Shown here piece by piece: positions 286-27,114 of a DNA stretch of 32,000 nt; positions within the stretch are counted from its first letter, which is position 1; each line of letters begins with the position of its first letter. The notes beneath the pieces were generated by a model. That model ran no database searches. It was given only the letters and a program-made list of their open reading frames with translations, and was not told where the DNA came from. The position numbers and the translations under genes are program-made. The DNA is from Methanopyrus kandleri AV19 (GTDB taxonomy: Archaea; JAADCQ01; Methanopyri; Methanopyrales; Methanopyraceae), in NCBI RefSeq assembly GCF_000007185.1, contig NC_003551.1:1560001-1592000 (forward strand). The letters run 5' to 3'.

Positions 286-363
286 CCGGCCGCAGCTCAG
301 TCTGGCTAGAGCGCGGGACTGTAGATCCCGTGGTCCCGGGTTCAAATCCCGGCGGCCGGACCA
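286..363 (+). tRNA. tRNA-Tyr (anticodon GTA), genomically encoded CCA
   Basis: Hand-folded cloverleaf:
- acceptor CCGGCCG (286-292) pairs with CGGCCGG (353-359);
- D arm GCTC/GAGC;
- anticodon stem CGGGA/TCCCG with loop CTGTAGA (GTA at 321-323);
- variable loop TGGTC;
- T arm CCGGG-TTCAAAT-CCCGG;
- discriminator A360 and CCA 361-363.
The C1:G72 pair is as expected for archaeal tRNA-Tyr. Confidence 0.93.
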
Positions 364-1291: not shown

Positions 1292-2041
1292 TCACTCTAC
1301 TTTCACGACTTCACGGTTGATCAGCTCGACGAACCGCGCCGCTACGAACCCCGTCACACACGCTGCGATCACCACGCCCAGGAACCCAGTACCGAGGTAC
1401 GGCAAGAGTAACGAGGACACCAGGCCCGCCAAAACGAGGAGAGTCAGAGAAACGGCCACGGGTACCGTGACTCTCCTCGGGTGATCGAGCGCGTCGTCGG
1501 CCAGTCCCAGGAGGCCGACACGCCACGGCAGCAGGCATCCGGCGGCCCCTGAAACCGCGATGGCTGGAGGAAGGAGTTTCACGACACGCTTGGGATACGC
1601 GAGCGCTTCTATTCCGAGCAGAACCACCGAAGCCGCTCCGCAGAGCGCACACAACGTCGTTACTCTACGGATCACCTCGGGCTCCGGTCGAACGTCGTCT
1701 ATGGTGGTCACACGTAGGGCCCCTCTTAGTGCCCAGTTGAGCTTGTGGCGGACCTTCGGGTCCTCGACGTCCTCCACGATCCTGTCGATGAGGTTCCGCT
1801 CCATGTCCTTCGCCACACTCTCGTCCCCTCGAATCAGTATCCACAACCTGTTGATACGACGGAAGATCCCTACGGAGCGCCTGTAACCGTACGCTCGGAT
1901 CTCTTTCACCTCAGCGTCCTCCGGTACGGCCGCGCTCAGCTCTTCCTCCAACCTGCCGAGCTCGGGCCCGTGCTCCGACAGTTCGGTCTTGATCGCTCGC
2001 CAAACTCTTCGAGCTCCTTCTGACGGGCTCACGCGCAACAT
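1292..2041 (-). CDS. hypothetical membrane protein (soluble N-terminal domain plus C-terminal TM helices)
   Basis: A 249-251 codon ORF. The C-terminal half has hydrophobic segments (LCALCGAASVVLLGIEALA, VPVAVSLTLLVLAGLVSSLLL, GFLGVVIAACVTGFVAA). ATG 2041-2039 overlaps the hypE stop TGA 2043-2041 (TGATG) and is preceded by GGGTG. No family recognised. Confidence 0.55.
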   Translation of the reverse strand: MLRVSPSEGARRVWRAIKTELSEHGPELGRLEEELSAAVPEDAEVKEIRAYGYRRSVGIFRRINRLWILIRGDESVAKDMERNLIDRIVEDVEDPKVRHKLNWALRGALRVTTIDDVRPEPEVIRRVTTLCALCGAASVVLLGIEALAYPKRVVKLLPPAIAVSGAAGCLLPWRVGLLGLADDALDHPRRVTVPVAVSLTLLVLAGLVSSLLLPYLGTGFLGVVIAACVTGFVAARFVELINREVVKVE

Positions 2042-3039
2042 CAGCACACCCGTGGTACCGGATCTCCGACGGGCTTTTCCACTATTCTCCGGCCACCGAC
2101 TTCGGTTTCCATCTCGACGCGTGGTGTGCCCTCTTCCACGACTCCTATCACCTCGGCGTTTTTGCCGACCTCGGTGGAGCGGATAGCGTCGAGCACGTCA
2201 TCGACCATATCCGGACGGACTCCCATGACGACTTTGCCCTCGTTCGCCACCTCCAGAGGATTGACACCCAGCATCTCCGAGAGCACTCGGACCTCCTCTC
2301 GAATTGGGATCCGCTCCTCCTCGATTACGATCCGTACACCCGACTTCTCCGCCATCTCGTTCAGAGCTCCGGCGAGGCCTCCTCGGGTGGGATCCTTCAT
2401 CGAAGTGACTCCACCGACCTCGAGCGCTGCGTTGACGGCTTCCCACACCGGAGCCACGTCGGATTCGAGATCCGTATCCAATCCCTGCTGGGCCGCCAGG
2501 ATCGCCATCCCATGGTCTCCTACCGTACCCGTGATGACGATCTTATCACCGGGCCTGAGACCACAGTCTCGGACAAGTTCGACGATCTCACCCACACCGG
2601 TCATGGTGACGACGATATCGACGTCCCCCGTGTTTCCGACCTTAGTGTCGCCGGTGATCAGATGAGCGCCCAACTCGCTCAGTACCCCGTCGATTGAACG
2701 GTACACACGCTTCAGATCGTCGATGGGGAATCCCTCGCGCACTACGATGGAGCACGCGAAGGCTACGGGCTTCGCGCCCATAACGGCGAGGTCGTTGGCC
2801 GTGCCCGCGGCCGCGAGTTTACCCACGTTCCCTCCGGGGAAAAACGGTGGGTCTACGATGTGCGCGTCGGTCGTCATCACCATTTCACCGTCGACGGAAG
2901 GGAACGTCGCCCCGTCGTCGAGGTCATCCAGCGTAACCGACCCTTCGCCGCGCATCGTCAGGTTGGGCAGCAGCTCCTCCTTGATCAGGGACTCCATGAG
3001 CTCTCCACCGGCCCCGTGTTCGCGGCGTACTTTACTCAC
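2041..3039 (-). CDS. hypE: hydrogenase maturation protein HypE (PurM-like carbamoyl dehydratase)
   Basis: Carries the N-terminal HGAGG motif, the PurM-superfamily core (DDGATF..., GTANDLAVMGAKP) and the characteristic C-terminal PRVC. Start placed at GTG 3039 so the conserved REHGAGG is included. The 103 extra codons in the ORF track run antisense through rps8e. Confidence 0.9.
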   Translation of the reverse strand: MSKVRREHGAGGELMESLIKEELLPNLTMRGEGSVTLDDLDDGATFPSVDGEMVMTTDAHIVDPPFFPGGNVGKLAAAGTANDLAVMGAKPVAFACSIVVREGFPIDDLKRVYRSIDGVLSELGAHLITGDTKVGNTGDVDIVVTMTGVGEIVELVRDCGLRPGDKIVITGTVGDHGMAILAAQQGLDTDLESDVAPVWEAVNAALEVGGVTSMKDPTRGGLAGALNEMAEKSGVRIVIEEERIPIREEVRVLSEMLGVNPLEVANEGKVVMGVRPDMVDDVLDAIRSTEVGKNAEVIGVVEEGTPRVEMETEVGGRRIVEKPVGDPVPRVC

Positions 3040-3058
3040 GTCCGTATTCCCCCGCCAG

Positions 3059-3084
3059 CTTTTTACGGCCGGGTAGACCGGCCG
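3059..3084. promoter_or_regulatory. shared A/T box (CTTTTTACG) plus 7-bp inverted repeat in the hypE/rps8e divergent spacer
   Basis: TTTTT 3060-3064 is the only A/T block in the 61-nt spacer. It is followed directly by CGGCCGG (3066-3072) gtaga CCGGCCG (3078-3084), a perfect inverted repeat between the box and the rps8e start. Confidence 0.35.
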
Positions 3085-3100
3085 ACCCGGGGGGTTCAGC

Positions 3101-3502
3101 TTGGGTGTATGGCACGGACGCTCACTACGTAAGCCGACCGGAGGAAGGATCCGGCCGCACCGGAAGAAGCGGAAGTTCGAAATGGGTAATCCTCCCACGG
3201 AGACGCTGGTAGGGGAAGAGCGGAAACTCAAGGAGCGACGCGGCATGGGTGGTAACGTCAAGAAGGGCCTCAAGTTCGCGACGCACGCCAACGTCGCCGA
3301 CCCGGAAACGGGTGAGGTGAAGTGCGTAAGGATCGAGGAAGTCGTCAAGAACCCAGCGTCCCAGTACTACGAGCGTCACGGAGTGATCACTAAGGGAGCG
3401 ATCATTCGGACGGAGATCGGGCTCGCGAAGGTCACGAATCGACCGGGTCAGGAACCCGTCGTTAACGCGGTCCTCATCAAGGAGGAAGAGGAAGAAGGTT
3501 AA
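3101..3502 (+). CDS. rps8e: 30S ribosomal protein S8e
   Basis: (M)[28 protein letters not shown]... is the typical S8e N-terminus. TTG start at 3101 with GGGGGGT 6 nt upstream. Acidic EEEEEG tail. Confidence 0.93.
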
Positions 3503-4155
3503 GGGAGCAGTCTCTCGGCGAGTTCCGCCATCCCTTCTCCCGTCTTGATGCTCGTGAGGTATACTTCGAGGTCCGGATTTATCTCCTTAGCCGTACGGAC
3601 CATCGTCTCCGGAGAGACACCGCAGGCGTCTGCCAGATCGATCTTATTAACGACCAACACGTCGCCTTTCCGGATCATCATCGGATGCTTGCCGATGACG
3701 TCCTCACCCTCCGTTGCCGAGACCACGATAACGCGTAGGTGGGCGCCGATAGGGAAATCGGCTGGGCATACGAGGTTTCCCACGTTTTCTATGAACAGCA
3801 CGTCCACCTCGTTCAGGTCCGTCAGTTCCTCGAGATGCTCTAAACCGTGTTGTACCATATGAGCGTCCAGATGGCACTCACGACCCGTGTTGAGACCTAC
3901 TGTCGGCACCCCTAGGTCCTTGAACCTGCGCTCGTCGTATTCGCTCACCACGTCTCCTGCGATGACCGCGAAGGAGTACTCGTCCCCGTATTCCTTCACG
4001 ATCCACTCGATGAGCGAGGTCTTTCCGGAACCGATAGATCCCAGTACCTCCACTGCCCGGACGTTGTGCTCGTCCAGTGTTTCCCGAACCTCGCGGGCTA
4101 AGTTACGGTTGACCTCGAGCAGATCTTCGGAGACGTCGACTTCAACCTTGTGCAT
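3499..4155 (-). CDS. hypB: hydrogenase nickel-incorporation GTPase HypB
   Basis: P-loop [20 protein letters not shown] motif, and NKIDL (G4). Start taken at ATG 4155 (MHKVEVD...). This overlaps the hypA 3' end by 14 nt. Confidence 0.92.
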
Positions 4156-16979: not shown

Positions 16980-17945
16980 TTGCCGACTTGGAGGTACGTA
17001 CCCCCGGTTCTACTCGCCATACTGTTATCATCGGCCTCACCCGTTGCAGCAGGCGTTGCTGAGATGTTTCACTCGGAAATCAACGAATTTAGGGAGTCAT
17101 TGGGGTTATCTCCGCTGAAATGGAGCCCGAGTTTGGCGAGGCTGGCCGAGCAGCACGCGGCGAGAATGGATGAGACCAACGAATTGTACCACGAGCGTTG
17201 TCAGGGGTATAACTTCGAGAACGTGGCGCGTGTTCCGAACACGGGAGAACCTACCCTAACGGCCAGGTTGCTCGCAATAACCGTGCTTTCCAGCCCTCCA
17301 CATCGATGGAACGTTCTGGAAGGGAATTGTGAGGGCGTCGGTGTGTCGATCTCGGGAGATTACGCGGTGCTCTCTCAGAAGATATCACGCGCTTCCGACG
17401 ACGCCGTAGACGTCCGGGTGGAGGTACCGCCGTTTCATGGTGTAGTATCGACGGCGCACCGCGATGATGTGGAGAAAGCTGTATTGGATGCTATCAACCG
17501 AGAGCGCGAGCAGTCAGGACTCCCTCCTCTAGTTCTGGACAAGGAACTCTCGAAGCGAGTCCTCGAAGAGCTCCGTGAGGCCGCCAGAACACTGTCGGTG
17601 ACTTGCTCGTCGGGGACGCTGGTGATACTGACACGGTTACAGAACCCCGTGGAGATCGCCGAGGATGTGCTCGGGGTACTTCGCGCCGTACCTGCCGGTC
17701 GTAACTTCTGGGTTCCGAAAGGTCGCTTAGGGGTAGCCGCTCTCGAAGTTACCGAGGTGACCATGCCGGATGGGAATCGCCTGAAGCTCGGAGTGGTGTG
17801 GGTGGGAATAAACGTCGTCGAAGAAATGGCGGGGAAGAACCGCCCCAGGCGAGTCCCATTCCCATCGTACGTTGCCATCGCGATCCCTCTGTGCTATCTC
17901 ATCACCCGCCGTCAAACGTTCTTTACCGGTCGACCGCAGCGCTAG
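16980..17945 (+). CDS. secreted/membrane-anchored CAP (SCP/PR-1-like) domain protein
   Basis: TTG 16980, with GAGGGGA 5 nt upstream, gives the signal peptide (M)PTWRYVPPVLLAILLSSASPVAAG. CAP signature EINEFRESLGLSPLKWSPSLARLAEQHAARM...H, plus a second partial copy LDAINREREQSGLPPLVLDKELSKRV. C-terminal TM anchor YVAIAIPLCYLITRR. Confidence 0.7.
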   Translation: MPTWRYVPPVLLAILLSSASPVAAGVAEMFHSEINEFRESLGLSPLKWSPSLARLAEQHAARMDETNELYHERCQGYNFENVARVPNTGEPTLTARLLAITVLSSPPHRWNVLEGNCEGVGVSISGDYAVLSQKISRASDDAVDVRVEVPPFHGVVSTAHRDDVEKAVLDAINREREQSGLPPLVLDKELSKRVLEELREAARTLSVTCSSGTLVILTRLQNPVEIAEDVLGVLRAVPAGRNFWVPKGRLGVAALEVTEVTMPDGNRLKLGVVWVGINVVEEMAGKNRPRRVPFPSYVAIAIPLCYLITRRQTFFTGRPQR

Positions 17946-22269: not shown

Positions 22270-23277
22270 GTGTCCGTCGTCCATTGGTCCCTCTACGTCA
22301 ACTCAGCGGTGATTTCGGCGGCAGCCGCTCTGGTACTCCCGAACGTACCGGTGTACGTGTACAGGCATGGCGGGGACGAGTTCACGGCCAGCCTAGTCCT
22401 ATCGACGTTCTCGATCACGATGACGATCACTTCCTTGGCTTCAACGAGCCTTCTGGAGGGGGTTCGGGCTGGCCTTCCCATATGCTTAGGGTGTCTCGGC
22501 TACGGCTGGGCCCTTCTACCTTTCTTCGTTCACGATTCGGTGGCATCACTGGCCTTCGCCCGAGCTCTTCAGGGGGTCTGTTCGGGGTTCTCCTTTCCCG
22601 CCAACGTGGCCGCCGCACTGCAGTTGGGACGTTCCGCGGTGTCCAAAAACAACTTCTGGTCCAACGTCGGTTTCATCGTCGGCTATCTGGCCTCCTCCCA
22701 CGTACGGGACCCGTTCGGGATTTGCTCGGTCCTCAGCGCACTCGCCGCTGTCTTCGGTCTCCCGCTCTTGACGTTGAGGATCCAATCACAGGAAGACGTG
22801 AGCGCATACCACGGGTATCCGGTAGCGTTCGGAGCTGCACTCGCACTTACGCTAGCCTCGACGCTCCCTAACTCCGCCATCACACTTCTTGCTCCCAAAT
22901 ATGGAGGTGATTACGGGCTCGTAATCGCCATGATGACAGCGGTTGGAGGAGTAGCTCAACTCCTAGGACCCCGGCTCGGTGAACTCGAGTCGACGCTGCT
23001 GGCGGTCGTACTTTGCGTGGTCAGCGCTGCTCTCGGTTACTCGCTAGCGAGCGTGCTCGCGGCCGGAACCGCCACAGGCCTCATGTACTATGCGGCCAAC
23101 GTCTACAGCGGTGGAGGTAGGGGAGTTCGGGCCGTTTCCACGGCAATAGGAGTGGGTTACGCCGTGAATCAGACGATAGTGGGTGCGATCCTGTCCGCGG
23201 GACTCGACGGTTGGAGGTTCGCCACTCTCATGGCGGCGGCGATAACACTGGTCTCGCTCCTCGGGGTGAGGCGTTGA
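22270..23277 (+). CDS. MFS-type transporter
   Basis: About 10-12 hydrophobic segments throughout, glycine-rich loops, and two-halves symmetry. Start is GTG 22270 or GTG 22225. The stop overlaps the CDF start (TTGA). Confidence 0.6.
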   Translation: MSVVHWSLYVNSAVISAAAALVLPNVPVYVYRHGGDEFTASLVLSTFSITMTITSLASTSLLEGVRAGLPICLGCLGYGWALLPFFVHDSVASLAFARALQGVCSGFSFPANVAAALQLGRSAVSKNNFWSNVGFIVGYLASSHVRDPFGICSVLSALAAVFGLPLLTLRIQSQEDVSAYHGYPVAFGAALALTLASTLPNSAITLLAPKYGGDYGLVIAMMTAVGGVAQLLGPRLGELESTLLAVVLCVVSAALGYSLASVLAAGTATGLMYYAANVYSGGGRGVRAVSTAIGVGYAVNQTIVGAILSAGLDGWRFATLMAAAITLVSLLGVRR

Positions 23278-24155
23278 GCGGCGTCGAGGAGCGTCTTCAG
23301 GAAGTTCGTAGAGGTGCGCTGATCGGAATCTACGGAAACATCCTCCTATCGGTTCTCAAGATAGCAATAGGACATATCGCCAGCAGTTGGGCGCTGGTTT
23401 CCGACGGCGTTCATTCCCTGGGGGACACCGTATCTTCCGTGATGGTACTTTTGGGCGCCAAGGTCGCCCGGAAACCGCCGGACGCCCGCCACATGTACGG
23501 TCACTACAAGGCCGAAGCCCTCGCAGGACTGGGAGTCTCCATGATGGTCACGTTCACGGGTCTTCTACTGCTCTGGGAGTCGCTGATGCGCCTCCGTAAC
23601 CCAGAGCCACCGACTTCCACACTGCCTTTAGTAGTGGCCCTTGGAACCGTGGCAGCTAAGGAAGGTATGTACCGATACACCCTGCGGCTGGCCGAACGCG
23701 TCGGGAGCTCGGCGCTGAAAGCGGACGCTAAGCACCACCGTAGTGACGCCCTATCCTCGGTGGCGGCTAGCGTCGGTATCGCCGGGGCACTCTTGGGGTA
23801 TCCGTGGGCGGATCCTGGTGCCGCACTCGTAGTCTCGCTGATGATCGCGCACATGGGTCTGGAACTGTGCTGGGAGAGCGTCCACGAGCTTATGGATGTG
23901 GCCCCCGAGGACGAACTACTCGAGCGCGTTCACGAGATCGTGGAGAACACACTCCAAGACGTCGATTTTGACGTGGAACTCATCGCGGTGCGCGGCAGGA
24001 AGATGGGTCCGGCTTACCATTTCGACGTTTTCGTAGCCGCGGATCCGGAGGCACGCCTCCGGGAACTCGATACCGTCAGGAAACGGATCGTGGAGGGGAT
24101 CCGCCGAGAGATATCTGCCGCCGAGCTCGTAACCGTGGAGTTCGTCCCAATGTAG
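23274..24155 (+). CDS. cation diffusion facilitator (CDF) family metal efflux transporter
   Basis: ALVSDGVHSLGD, YGHYKAEALA and HHRSDALSS metal-site motifs, plus a C-terminal cytoplasmic domain. TTG 23274 has GGGGTGAGG 3 nt upstream. Confidence 0.88.
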   Translation: MSGVEERLQEVRRGALIGIYGNILLSVLKIAIGHIASSWALVSDGVHSLGDTVSSVMVLLGAKVARKPPDARHMYGHYKAEALAGLGVSMMVTFTGLLLLWESLMRLRNPEPPTSTLPLVVALGTVAAKEGMYRYTLRLAERVGSSALKADAKHHRSDALSSVAASVGIAGALLGYPWADPGAALVVSLMIAHMGLELCWESVHELMDVAPEDELLERVHEIVENTLQDVDFDVELIAVRGRKMGPAYHFDVFVAADPEARLRELDTVRKRIVEGIRREISAAELVTVEFVPM

Positions 24156-24184
24156 GTATCCAATTCGAAACTCAGGAACCGACT

Positions 24185-25531
24185 TCACTCTTTGTACACT
24201 CCCAACCACCTGAACGCCCCTTCACCGTCGATAAAACCCGCCAATATCGTATCCTTAGTTATAGCAACTTGTAGGGTGCCACTCAAGTCTGAGATAACCG
24301 GAAGGCCAATTATAGGCACATTCTCACCATTAACTTTAACTTCCACCGGTATTGGACTTACCCGTAAAGTAACCGTCTCCATACCTGTATACAAAGGTTT
24401 ATATACAGGTTTATCCGAAGCGCTCACAATTATTCTGCCCTCCTCATCGATATTGGCCTCTATTCCTTTAATGGGATTTTCAATATCCCCTAATTTTAGA
24501 GGAGGAGTACCATCGGACTCAGCTACTACACTACACCCATTCTCTGTAACCTCACATTTAATCGAAGCAAGATCCTTAAGGATAGAATATAGTATCTTTT
24601 TATTATTCCCTGGAAGCTGAATCTCCATCATTCCTACGATAGCTAGTCTATATTTATTCGGCACAATATCTTCGAAATCAAAATCGTTTACTCGAACCTT
24701 CCGCACTGACCCCCATTTACGTTTAATTACGTCCCAACGTCTAACATTAATGTACTCATTTTCTAACTTAATTTCAAATATTCCATTATCACTATCATAC
24801 AGTAAGATTCTATCCTCTAAGTTTATTATAGTCCAATCCCCATCATCACTAATTACTACCACACTACCGAAAGTTTCAATATTACGTGTTTTCAAACACC
24901 CGTCGTAATAACACCATAACTTAATTTTCCCATGAATGAATGTATCAACCACCCTAATATTTACAACAATATCACCAGGTACATCACCAGTAACCTTCAT
25001 CAGAACTTTACCATTTACTAGTAACTTATTATTCCTAACTTCAATATCGATAGTATCGTTATTCGAAAATTTAAATGCCAAGGTCTTTGTCGTGACTTTA
25101 TCCCCTTCAGGAAGTTTAATATTATCAACAAGAACCTTATATTTTAAATGTTTTGAACTTATACTAGCCAATGGAACGTTAGTGCCCAAACCTTTATTAA
25201 CGATTTCCTCAATTATAAAATGTTCAGATTTTATCTTATTTATTTTCAAATCGAACCCAATCTCAATACTTACCTCGTACAGTCCTTCAGAGGCGGTTAA
25301 GGCAATTTTATCGTTCCTTTTAAACTCGTATGTTTCAGTAGTCGTCTCTGATTTAGCATTTATTAACACTTTGTTTTCAGTTGGAACAATCCTTATCGTA
25401 TCCCCGATGTTTAACTTACTTAAGATCAAACGATCGTTCAGCTTTAGACTCCGATTGGCAACCTTAATTCGTACGATGTTCGCAGAAGTGTGAACTTCTA
25501 AGGGATCGTCGTATGATATATTTGTAATCAT
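24185..25531 (-). CDS. orphan 448-aa beta-rich protein encoded in a low-GC island (function unknown)
   Basis: An uninterrupted 448-codon ORF in 30-45% GC DNA, where random ORFs should be short. Asn/Lys/Ile-rich. No signal peptide, TM segment or known motif, and no SD. TATA-like CTAAATAG lies 24-33 nt upstream of ATG 25531. Confidence 0.75.
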   Translation of the reverse strand: MITNISYDDPLEVHTSANIVRIKVANRSLKLNDRLILSKLNIGDTIRIVPTENKVLINAKSETTTETYEFKRNDKIALTASEGLYEVSIEIGFDLKINKIKSEHFIIEEIVNKGLGTNVPLASISSKHLKYKVLVDNIKLPEGDKVTTKTLAFKFSNNDTIDIEVRNNKLLVNGKVLMKVTGDVPGDIVVNIRVVDTFIHGKIKLWCYYDGCLKTRNIETFGSVVVISDDGDWTIINLEDRILLYDSDNGIFEIKLENEYINVRRWDVIKRKWGSVRKVRVNDFDFEDIVPNKYRLAIVGMMEIQLPGNNKKILYSILKDLASIKCEVTENGCSVVAESDGTPPLKLGDIENPIKGIEANIDEEGRIIVSASDKPVYKPLYTGMETVTLRVSPIPVEVKVNGENVPIIGLPVISDLSGTLQVAITKDTILAGFIDGEGAFRWLGVYKE

Positions 25532-25550
25532 ATGTTTTGATGGATCCCAT

Positions 25551-25558
25551 TCTATTTA
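25551..25558 (-). promoter_or_regulatory. TATA-like element (CTAAATAG on minus strand) upstream of the island ORF
   Basis: The distance to the ATG fits a leaderless or very short-leader archaeal transcript. It overlaps the stop of the 19-codon mini-ORF. Confidence 0.3.
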
Positions 25559-25776
25559 GACCTTACAGGAGCGAGCTTGTGAACCTATGTTGACAGTTAT
25601 TTCGTCAGTACTCATCCAGGTCCCCCTGGCGTTCAATCGCCATATTTTTTACGCGGAGCGATTCCACATCACATGCTGATGGGATACGTTGTCATTAGGA
25701 TTCATGTGGCGTATATCGCCCGAAACCTCCAAGGAGCACGTAGCCATCGAATCGCGGAGTCACCCGGGGGATCTCG

Positions 25777-27114
25777 ATGCTAGCCGTAGCCATCGCTGGA
25801 GTTCGCAGCGGCTGCGGTAAAACTTCGCTCTCGATCGGGTTGGTGAGGGCGTTACGCGAGGAGGGAACCCGAGTGCGTCCCTTTAAGGTCGGTCCCGATT
25901 ACATAGATCCCACGTACTTGGAAGTCGCGGCTGGCCTAGAGGCGTTCAACCTGGACGTCTGGATGATGGGAGAGAGCGGCGTGGTGGACGCTTTCGGGAG
26001 GTACACCCGGAGATGCGATGCGGCGGTCATTGAAGGCGTGATGGGGATGTTCGACGGGCACGGGGAAGGCACCGTCGAGGGGAGCACCGCCCACGTAGCG
26101 GCCCTTTTGGGCGTCCCGGTGGTTCTGGTGGTGGACTGTAGGAGTTATGCTACGACGGTCGCAGCCGAGGTCCGCGGGTTCCGGGACATGGCCCATGAGA
26201 TCGGGACCCGACTCGAAGGGGTGATCCTCAACAGGGTCGGAAGCGAGCGTCACGAGCGGCTGCTGATCACAGCGCTGAGGCGTTACTGTCCAGATGTTCG
26301 GGTGTTCGGGGTAATCCCCAGGCTCGAGGATGCCGTCATACCGGACAGGCATCTGGGTCTCATCCCGGCGGACGAGCGCAACGAGTTCGCCGAGCGGGTG
26401 GCGGAGTACTGGGGCGAGGTCGTCGCCGAGCACGTGGACCTCGACGCGCTTCGGGAGCTGGAAGTCGAAGGGCCCTCGGTCGAGCCCAGTCCACCACCCG
26501 AACCGGAGCGCGTCGAGACCAAGGTGGCGGTAATCTCGGGTCGCGTGTTCACCTTCTATTACCGGGAGAACTTACGCTTCCTAGCGGAATCCGCGGAGGT
26601 CGTGCCGGTGGATCCGGAGAAGGATCGGCTTCCGGACGTCGACGCCGTGTACATCCCTGGCGGGTACCCCGAAGTGTACGCCGATAACCTCGACGACCGG
26701 TTGATGAGGGACCTCCTGGAGTTCCACGAGGAGGGAGGCAGGATCCTGGGAGAGTGCGGAGGACTGATGTACCTGTGCTCCGAGGTAGTGGACGCGGACG
26801 GCGATCGTCACGATATGGTGGGAGTGTTCGACGCGGTGGCACGAATGCGGGAACGGTTGGCCGCGCTGGGATACGTCGAAGGTCGTGTGACCGACGCGCA
26901 CCCGTTCGCGCCCTCCGGATCCGAAATCCGGGGTCACGAGTTCCACTACTCCGTCGTGGACGTTAGGGAGGATCTGGAGTACGCGTACAGGCTCTCACGA
27001 GGGACTGGGGTAAGAGAGGGCCTGGACGGGCTCGTTAAGGGGAACACGGTAGCCTCGTACACGCATCTCCACATCAGGTCGGACGGCGGTGTGTTCCGCG
27101 GTCTAGTACAGTAG
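25777..27114 (+). CDS. cbiA: cobyrinate / Ni-sirohydrochlorin a,c-diamide synthase (CbiA/CfbB family)
   Basis: AGVRSGCGKTSLSIGL P-loop, KVGPDYIDP, and a C-terminal glutamine amidotransferase domain with GECGGLMYL. ATG 25777 has GGGGGA upstream. The cobamide versus F430 paralogue cannot be decided from sequence by eye. Confidence 0.9.
   Translation: MLAVAIAGVRSGCGKTSLSIGLVRALREEGTRVRPFKVGPDYIDPTYLEVAAGLEAFNLDVWMMGESGVVDAFGRYTRRCDAAVIEGVMGMFDGHGEGTVEGSTAHVAALLGVPVVLVVDCRSYATTVAAEVRGFRDMAHEIGTRLEGVILNRVGSERHERLLITALRRYCPDVRVFGVIPRLEDAVIPDRHLGLIPADERNEFAERVAEYWGEVVAEHVDLDALRELEVEGPSVEPSPPPEPERVETKVAVISGRVFTFYYRENLRFLAESAEVVPVDPEKDRLPDVDAVYIPGGYPEVYADNLDDRLMRDLLEFHEEGGRILGECGGLMYLCSEVVDADGDRHDMVGVFDAVARMRERLAALGYVEGRVTDAHPFAPSGSEIRGHEFHYSVVDVREDLEYAYRLSRGTGVREGLDGLVKGNTVASYTHLHIRSDGGVFRGLVQ

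Follow-up and report, generated by a model that had tools for sequence, protein, structure and literature searches.

A stretch of AT-rich DNA interrupts a GC-rich part of the Methanopyrus kandleri AV19 chromosome (NC_003551.1, positions 1,560,001 to 1,592,000), a region of 32,000 nucleotides that is called the window here and supplies the coordinates used below. The segment measures 1621 bp (24156..25776), with limits set by the GC profile and by the corresponding junctions in relatives. It extends from the stop codon of a CDF (cation-efflux) transporter gene on the left (23274..24155, plus strand; placed by gene order and by the substitution comparison below) to the start of cbiA on the right (25777..27114, plus strand), which annotation matches identify as MK1573, the gene for cobyrinate a,c-diamide synthase. 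It holds one gene, MK1571, whose 448-codon open reading frame (ORF) on the minus strand (24185..25531) is the part that is still open in AV19. The product is 100% identical to an M. kandleri hypothetical protein, listed in AV19 as MK1571 (AAM02784.1 / Q8TV29 / WP_148679853.1). Databases assign it three lengths: 271 aa in the 2002 annotation, 414 aa in RefSeq (WP_148679853.1) and 448 aa from a gene caller on a Logan contig. A literature search found no paper on MK1571, and the locus is not discussed in the comparative study of strains KOL6 and SNP6 (PMC5504354).

Composition and gene content of the segment

GC content is 38.6% across the segment and 36.5% in the ORF, compared with 60.3% in the other ~30 kb of the window. 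Against 543 other windows of 1621 nt, whose GC spans 0.557-0.645 with a standard deviation of 0.017, the segment stands at z = -13 and is the sole such trough in 32 kb. This sliding-window calculation reproduces the contrast, and the position of the trough, given in a preliminary description made from the letters, whose five counts of G+C per 60 nt (19, 18, 19, 36 and 37) all prove exact on recount. GC by codon position is 0.45/0.31/0.34 (positions 1/2/3) in the ORF and 0.70/0.43/0.77 in cbiA. The product is enriched in Ile (11.8%), Lys (8.9%) and Asn (7.1%), whereas its neighbours are Ala/Arg/Glu/Gly-rich, a measurement that bears out the Asn/Lys/Ile-rich product described earlier.

The 448-codon coding ORF of that description is present and uninterrupted; the chance of so many stop-free codons at the segment's base composition is ~3e-17, and the remaining five frames hold 4-76 stops each. 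Opposite MK1571, two antisense open frames occur on the plus strand (24936..25493, 185 aa; 24192..24620, 142 aa), and plus-strand frame 0 has just 7 stops over the whole segment, most likely as a by-product of sense-strand codon bias.

Searches for an integrase, a transfer RNA (tRNA) target and a flanking direct repeat agree with the earlier statement that none is visible. No tRNA gene lies within 23 kb of the segment (the nearest is at 286..363), and no direct repeat spans both borders, the best candidates being chance-level 10-13-mers. The neighbourhood contains no mobility gene, and the segment's single ORF has no integrase, transposase or recombinase domain. Rfam gave no match in or near the segment. 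A scan for promoters and terminators of bacterial type gave chance-level hits only.

Distribution across the Methanopyri

With CbiA as a handle, the homologous CDF-cbiA junction was recovered from 14 related loci (numbered with the prefix L). Four metagenome-assembled genomes of deeper Methanopyri (L003-L006; CbiA 68-77% identical; 62-70% GC) have the gene order MFS, CDF, cbiA, LactB, with the CDF stop and the cbiA start 4-40 bp apart and no remnant of the segment. Three Methanopyrus lineages (L090-L092) have spacers of 99-181 bp and 50-69% GC without similarity to it. Among the compared loci, the full island occurs only in AV19 and in L083 (GCA_053992195.1), a genome with ~94% nucleotide identity to the window. 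At the same junction, L083 has an intact 474-codon ortholog at 35% GC, an open frame whose chance probability at that GC is ~1e-17. The two proteins are 74% identical; the products of the flanking genes are 95-99% identical.

Several other strains retain pieces of the segment. In KOL6, a 556-bp colinear remnant joins the final ~75 bp of the gene to small internal fragments, its first 13 codons and the region upstream. SNP6, L086-L088 and L089 share a 192-bp remnant, which is the KOL6 sequence minus a further internal deletion and retains the 3' end of MK1571 together with the upstream region. A neighbour-joining tree from 2066 aligned flank residues places island and remnant carriers in one clade, (AV19, L083) plus (KOL6, SNP6, L086, L089), with L090-L092 outside it.

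Because the outgroup junctions are tight and the L090-L092 spacers are unrelated, the segment is an insertion. It was acquired relative to the class Methanopyri, yet it is an old acquisition common to some Methanopyrus lineages, and in most lineages it has been erased by deletion. The remnants and deletions in several strains show that MK1571 is dispensable and was lost repeatedly. The preliminary description had proposed a one-gene, foreign-looking insertion, and the relatives support this in part: the composition and the empty sites in the deeper Methanopyri and L090-L092 agree with it, whereas the L083 ortholog and the remnants in KOL6, SNP6 and their relatives show that the insertion is neither private to AV19 nor recent. 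An assembly or contamination artefact is ruled out by three assemblies (AV19, L001 and L002) that are identical over the MK1571 sequence and by the ortholog in a second strain.

Selection on MK1571

Comparison of the AV19 and L083 alleles by the Nei-Gojobori method gives 0.139 nonsynonymous substitutions per site (dN) and 0.867 synonymous substitutions per site (dS), a dN/dS of 0.16. Blocks of 50 codons range from 0.04 to 0.22; the terminal block of 27 codons reaches 0.57, a noisy value with a dS of just 0.12. All indels between the two alleles are multiples of three. These patterns show MK1571 to be a real gene that evolves under purifying selection where it is intact. The protein identity of 74% does not indicate fast evolution, since dS is also ~6 times that of the flanks (0.08-0.24), and fast or diversifying protein evolution is ruled out by the overall and blockwise dN/dS, apart from the noisy terminal 27 codons.

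A hairpin at 24383..24410 lies in the most conserved part of the gene, which encodes KPVYKPLYTG. Its stem has 9 perfect base pairs, or 12 with one G-U pair, and is kept in L083 by two complementary synonymous changes (CCT to CCC and ACA to ACG). Markov simulations give p ~0.05 for such a stem, and the compensatory pair has a chance of ~0.16, which makes the hairpin a curiosity rather than a finding.

The ancestral start and a strain-specific nonsense codon

The L083 frame begins 28 codons earlier, with ATG AGT ACT behind GGGGGATC. AV19 has the same ATG (25615-25613), with a Shine-Dalgarno-like GGGGGAC (25620..25626, minus strand) 4 nt upstream of it that is conserved as GGGGGATC in L083 and fits the GGGG[G/T] motif that precedes the window's other gene starts by 5-12 nt. 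The intervening 28 codons (25532..25615, minus strand) read MSTDEITVNIGSQARSCKV*IEWDPSKH in AV19; both the ATG and the peptide MDIDEVIINIGS survive in the KOL6 remnant. Differences between AV19 and L083 in this extension fall on codon positions 1:2:3 in the ratio 9:4:16, and VEIEWDPSK is preserved in the alignment despite seven synonymous changes, which argues that the extension was translated for most of its history. The ancestral start of MK1571 is accordingly ATG 25615, behind a host-type Shine-Dalgarno sequence, and the ancestral protein had ~476 aa.

The ATG, the Shine-Dalgarno sequence and the N-terminal peptide are kept in three lineages, while an in-frame stop is limited to the AV19 type. 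Codon 20 is TAA in AV19 (25556..25558, minus strand) and GAA in L083; the TAA-bearing sequence is identical in L001 and L002, which are other assemblies of the AV19 strain type. Nine codons past the TAA lies ATG 25531, which has no host-type Shine-Dalgarno sequence. The 448-codon remainder may be reinitiated at this ATG or may be a very young pseudogene. The earlier view of a gene with a leaderless layout, lacking a Shine-Dalgarno sequence and preceded by a TATA-like element, fits ATG 25531 only and fails for the ancestral start: the supposed element, CTAAATAG, is former coding sequence and spans the codon-20 stop.

A candidate TATA box lies ~32 nt upstream of ATG 25615. This A/T box (25642..25652; ATATTTTTTAC on the plus strand, GTAAAAAATAT on the minus strand) is kept in AV19, L083 and KOL6, amid surroundings that are 38-55% identical, and nothing else in the divergent intergenic region is well conserved. 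It may serve MK1571 and is possibly bidirectional.

A tract of deep divergence between AV19 and L083

The excess divergence between AV19 and L083 extends beyond the gene, over a tract (24330..26060) that takes in the greater part of MK1571, the intergenic region and the 5' end of cbiA to about codon 100. Nucleotide identity is 93-99% in the flanks, falls from ~24330 to 66-85% across MK1571, reaches 38-55% in the intergenic region, stands at 69-82% over the first ~300 nt of cbiA and recovers by ~26060. Synonymous divergence follows the same course, with a dS of 0.87 in the island, 0.89 in cbiA codons 1-100 (60% GC) and then 0.37, 0.20 and 0.14 downstream; it is 0.14-0.20 for cbiA codons 200-445 and 0.08-0.24 for other flanking genes. 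Third-position discordance between weak (A/T) and strong (G/C) bases (W/S) is 0.32 for the island and 0.31 for the cbiA 5' end, and drops to 0.12 over the remaining cbiA.

AT-rich DNA is not the cause of the excess, since the 60%-GC cbiA 5' end shows the same dS and discordance; faster mutation of such DNA is ruled out by the dS of 0.89 there. Over cbiA nt 1-300, L083 stands at much the same identity (0.76-0.82) to every lineage sampled, and AV19 and KOL6 share 0.88; over nt 600-1338, AV19 and L083 share 0.95. This pattern suggests that L083 acquired a tract of ~1.7 kb, including MK1571, by homologous recombination from an unsampled, more distant Methanopyrus lineage, which would likewise have had MK1571 beside cbiA.

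Base composition through time

GC content at third codon positions (GC3) is ~0.32-0.35 in both alleles. Nearly all synonymous differences between the AV19 and L083 islands are W/S transitions, and they are split 53:55. A two-state model was applied in which island third positions approach the host composition as fast as the co-diverged cbiA 5' end implies. Under this model, an ancestor with a GC3 of 0 would have reached ~0.40 by now, compared with the observed 0.32. For the ancestor, it implies a GC3 of -0.19 (bootstrap 95% interval -1.96 to 0.12), with 17% of replicates above 0 and 4% above 0.10. The result is suggestive, though not significant, of a low GC that is not simply decaying to the host value. 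The apparent lack of drift to host GC over ~0.9 synonymous substitutions per site is mildly interesting for ideas on amelioration.

Sequence and structure searches

Database searches covered a word-indexed set of 5.8e9 clusters and an exhaustive phmmer comparison with 1.84e9 representatives. The MK1571 family comprises two 90% clusters only, both from Methanopyrus, and neither search gave a homolog outside the genus except one rejected match to a kinase N-lobe. No MK1571-like protein occurs in the proteomes of L003-L006 and L090-L092 or among 15 billion proteins. Scans of both alleles against Pfam, PHROGs, PADLOC and NCBIfam gave nothing above threshold; PADLOC-DB v2 (5027 models) gave no family at E <= 10 for either allele, and the Pfam scan revealed no nuclease, ATPase, TIR or SIR2-type motif in MK1571. 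Against PDB, both single-sequence and profile searches returned noise only (E >= 0.17). Comparison by tblastn with phage and plasmid records gave no match, and pattern and tblastn scans of IMG/VR, JGI metagenomes and GTDB genomes gave no relatives in a set from which M. kandleri genomes are apparently absent. Together, the sequence, profile and Foldseek searches found no confident homology to a known housekeeping family.

Hydropathy analysis gives a maximum 19-residue Kyte-Doolittle value of 1.43, which corresponds to no transmembrane segment. Neither the ancestral N-terminus (MSTDEITVNIGS) nor that of the restart (MITNISYDD) is hydrophobic, so hydropathy indicates no signal peptide. An adhesin-like role, one of the guesses in the preliminary description, finds no support in a protein that has neither a signal peptide nor a transmembrane segment. 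AlphaFold2 models have a predicted local distance difference test score (pLDDT) of 38.7 at full length, from three sequences, and 47.8 for residues 190-300; both are too uncertain to use and agree only on an almost all-beta protein. Foldseek comparison of the full-length model (pLDDT 38.7) with PDB places beta-propellers in all the top positions, with non-significant matches (E >= 5e-3, template modelling score ~0.1). The sole internal repeat detected (aa 29-60 against 144-175; z ~4; hhalign E 0.017) is weak, has a period of ~115 aa and hints at two modules of about that length.

Two partial resemblances were considered and rejected. A segment of short beta-strands and turns (aa 149-180) resembles the SPP1_Dit C-terminal domain of the siphovirus distal tail protein (PF22768; E 8e-4, 20 bits). 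The score lies below the gathering threshold of 25 bits, the 74% identical L083 ortholog (P0011) shows no match at E <= 1, and no PHROGs or phage match accompanies it. The only match outside Methanopyrus is P0003, a protein of 5955 aa, in which strands beta1-beta3 of four kinase repeats are ~31% identical to MK1571 aa 75-145; the summed E of 1.9e-6 is inflated by the four repeats. MK1571 has NKGLGTNV and VLVDNIKL where the kinase N-lobe has GKGISGNV...VVVKKIKL. Its sequence shows neither the first glycine of the loop nor the catalytic lysine, and HRD and DFG are likewise missing; with its all-beta prediction, this excludes a kinase-like protein. P0003 itself contains at least four tandem protein-kinase domains (GKGISGNV, HKDIKADN, SDFG) with repeated linkers between them.

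MK1571 is a soluble, beta-rich, Methanopyrus-restricted protein with no known domain, as the preliminary description had recognised in calling it an orphan beta-rich product without a recognisable domain or transmembrane segment. With low confidence, its most likely character is that of a non-enzymatic multi-domain beta protein with a binding or structural role.

The neighbouring cbiA and other features of the window

In the outgroups, cbiA lies just after CDF in the same direction, at a distance of 4-13 bp, and the close co-directional spacing suggests co-transcription. In AV19, antisense MK1571 and a 245-bp divergent region stand between the two genes; the insertion cut cbiA off from the co-directional MFS-CDF genes. 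cbiA has its own Shine-Dalgarno sequence, GGGGGATC (25766..25773, plus strand), ahead of its start at 25777. The part kept in the SNP6-type 192-bp remnants is exactly the region upstream of cbiA, which is consistent with a divergent region that now supplies the cbiA promoter. An 11-nt exact direct repeat, CGTAGCCATCG, occurs upstream of cbiA (25739..25749) and in cbiA codons 3-7 (25785..25795); about 0.5 repeats of this type are expected by chance in 2 kb, and it is probably meaningless.

One gene away from the island site, L086 carries a different insertion of ~2.5 kb between MFS and CDF (1432-3926 in that locus; also in L087 and L088). Its three ORFs (349, 157 and 123 aa) match nothing in Pfam or PADLOC, its GC is ~0.50 against 0.55-0.60 in the flanks, and the neighbourhood seems prone to orphan insertions. 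A small DUF5402 gene in the LactB-MFS gap of AV19 and L083 is not called in KOL6, SNP6 and L089, where a gap of ~200 bp occurs instead (L084 3354-3558, L085 3717-3922, L089 2718-2923). The second-lowest GC stretch of the window (0.54-0.58) contains a gene for a CAP-domain protein (16980..17945); between AV19 and L083, its dN/dS of 0.21 is higher and its protein identity of 92.5% lower than in most of the compared flanking genes.

Origin and fate of the islet

Taken together, the segment is probably an old, single-gene, compositionally foreign islet, made up of MK1571 and its 245-bp upstream region, that has been recombined, deleted and, in AV19, clipped. The empty and occupied junctions show that it entered between CDF and cbiA in a common ancestor of some Methanopyrus lineages, and MK1571 has since persisted as a dispensable accessory gene under purifying selection where intact. 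The divergence tract suggests that flanking core genes carried it between lineages through homologous recombination, and the remnants show deletion in most of them. In the AV19 type, a GAA to TAA change at codon 20 has severed the host-type start and Shine-Dalgarno sequence from the frame, leaving the 448-codon remainder. A virus or another mobile element of low GC, from the hydrothermal community, was probably the source, and the gene may have been retained for a strain-specific, non-essential role.

Several points weigh against this account. The similar GC3 of two deeply divergent alleles suggests a poor fit to passive amelioration in an insertion of such age. With just two intact alleles to compare, the selection cannot be placed on the AV19 branch, where the copy may already be non-functional. 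No donor lineage or homolog outside Methanopyrus was found in any searched database, and no integrase, attachment (att) site or target duplication was found at the locus that would indicate an insertion mechanism. The binding or structural, non-enzymatic role is argued from the absence of motifs and from two models of low confidence. For a viral or mobile origin, the evidence consists only of the composition, the orphan status and a general finding on ORFan genes (PMC2718499).

The most serious competing view concerns the AV19 copy, which would be a young pseudogene if the stop at codon 20 has ended translation from its one good start, with the frame still open merely through recency. We regard this as a substantial possibility that stays somewhat short of an even chance. 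The TAA stands in frame behind a conserved ATG and Shine-Dalgarno sequence, ATG 25531 has no such sequence, MK1571 is dispensable and has decayed in KOL6, SNP6, L086 and L089, and three annotations have chosen three different starts (271, 414 and 448 aa). On the other hand, the restart codon lies close enough behind the stop, at just nine codons, for termination-reinitiation, and no second lesion occurs across 448 AT-rich codons. A relic or domesticated virion protein, such as a tail, baseplate or capsid-associated beta-sandwich of an otherwise lost provirus, is a doubtful alternative. An all-beta, multi-domain orphan encoded by an AT-rich gene would suit it, as would the weak Dit match and the frequent origin of atypical-composition ORFans in integrative elements (PMC2718499); the failure of that match to recur in the ortholog, the empty PHROGs, phage and IMG/VR searches and the lack of any other provirus gene or remnant at any of 10 Methanopyrus loci all speak against it. 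An anti-virus defence or exclusion protein would explain patchiness, loss, foreign composition and exchange as the signature of a defence islet. Presence differs among close strains, the recombination tract is centred on the locus, and the three-gene insertion in L086-L088 indicates a neighbourhood that accepts insertions; but the PADLOC models and the motif search are empty, dN/dS shows no sign of diversifying selection outside the noisy terminal block, and the high protein divergence is explained by deeper coalescence rather than by fast evolution. A defence role is unlikely.

Two further readings concern the nature of the DNA itself. An ancestral native gene of the Methanopyri, lost elsewhere, with a low GC that is functional and not a foreign mark, would account for the similar GC3 of both alleles, the negative ancestral value under host-rate amelioration and a recombination donor seemingly outside all sampled lineages. 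It is very improbable in view of the tight outgroup junctions without a remnant, the unrelated L090-L092 spacers, the absence of homologs from the proteomes of relatives and from 15 billion proteins, and the lowering of GC at all three codon positions. A spurious ORF in an AT-rich non-coding element (a replication origin, a nucleoid-binding site or a promoter island) would fit the strong AT-rich trough and an accompanying GC-skew excursion, but is effectively refuted by the low dN/dS, the in-frame indels, the long open frame at 35% GC in a second strain and the lack of repeat architecture or an Rfam match. A bolder version of the islet account would make MK1571 the founding member of a new Methanopyrus-restricted protein family or fold of viral origin, with both the gene and its AT-rich coding sequence actively kept by selection in the most hyperthermophilic of methanogens while the islet circulates among lineages by homologous recombination. 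One possible route would be that rare codons or AT-rich DNA may keep a protein of virus-host conflict tightly controlled. This version is improbable at present.

As an old islet with a probable foreign source, the locus offers a clean, datable example of foreign DNA that enters, persists, recombines and decays in a genome whose host grows at ~100-120 degrees C. Methanopyrus reportedly acquired few genes laterally, according to the 2002 genome paper, and we know of no virus or plasmid of this genus. The comparison also corrects the annotation of MK1571, which has its true start further upstream than the three listed starts, followed by a strain-specific nonsense codon. The protein is one more ORFan without an assigned function, and its practical weight will stay limited until its structure or a phenotype is obtained.

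Comparison with known systems

In bacteria, flexible accessory loci, such as serotype loci and flexible genomic islands, are exchanged by homologous recombination of their conserved flanks. MK1571 resembles them in a divergence peak that is centred on the accessory gene and decays into a flanking core gene, here the cbiA 5' end, and in its strain-variable presence. Unlike them, it is one gene and not a multi-gene cassette, only two alleles are known, and dN/dS gives no evidence of diversifying selection.

A further parallel is with the ORFan genes and islets of atypical composition that Cortez, Forterre and Gribaldo (2009, PMC2718499) trace to integrative elements. MK1571 shares with these islets an AT-rich, atypical composition in a GC-rich host, a lack of homologs, a patchy distribution in close relatives and a position between conserved core genes. 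Unlike them, its islet is a single gene without an integrase, att site, tRNA target or other element gene, and it is old, having been shared, recombined and decayed across the genus; M. kandleri is not mentioned in that study (PMC2718499). The feature is therefore of a familiar kind, an AT-rich ORFan islet, with a history that is unusually well resolved.

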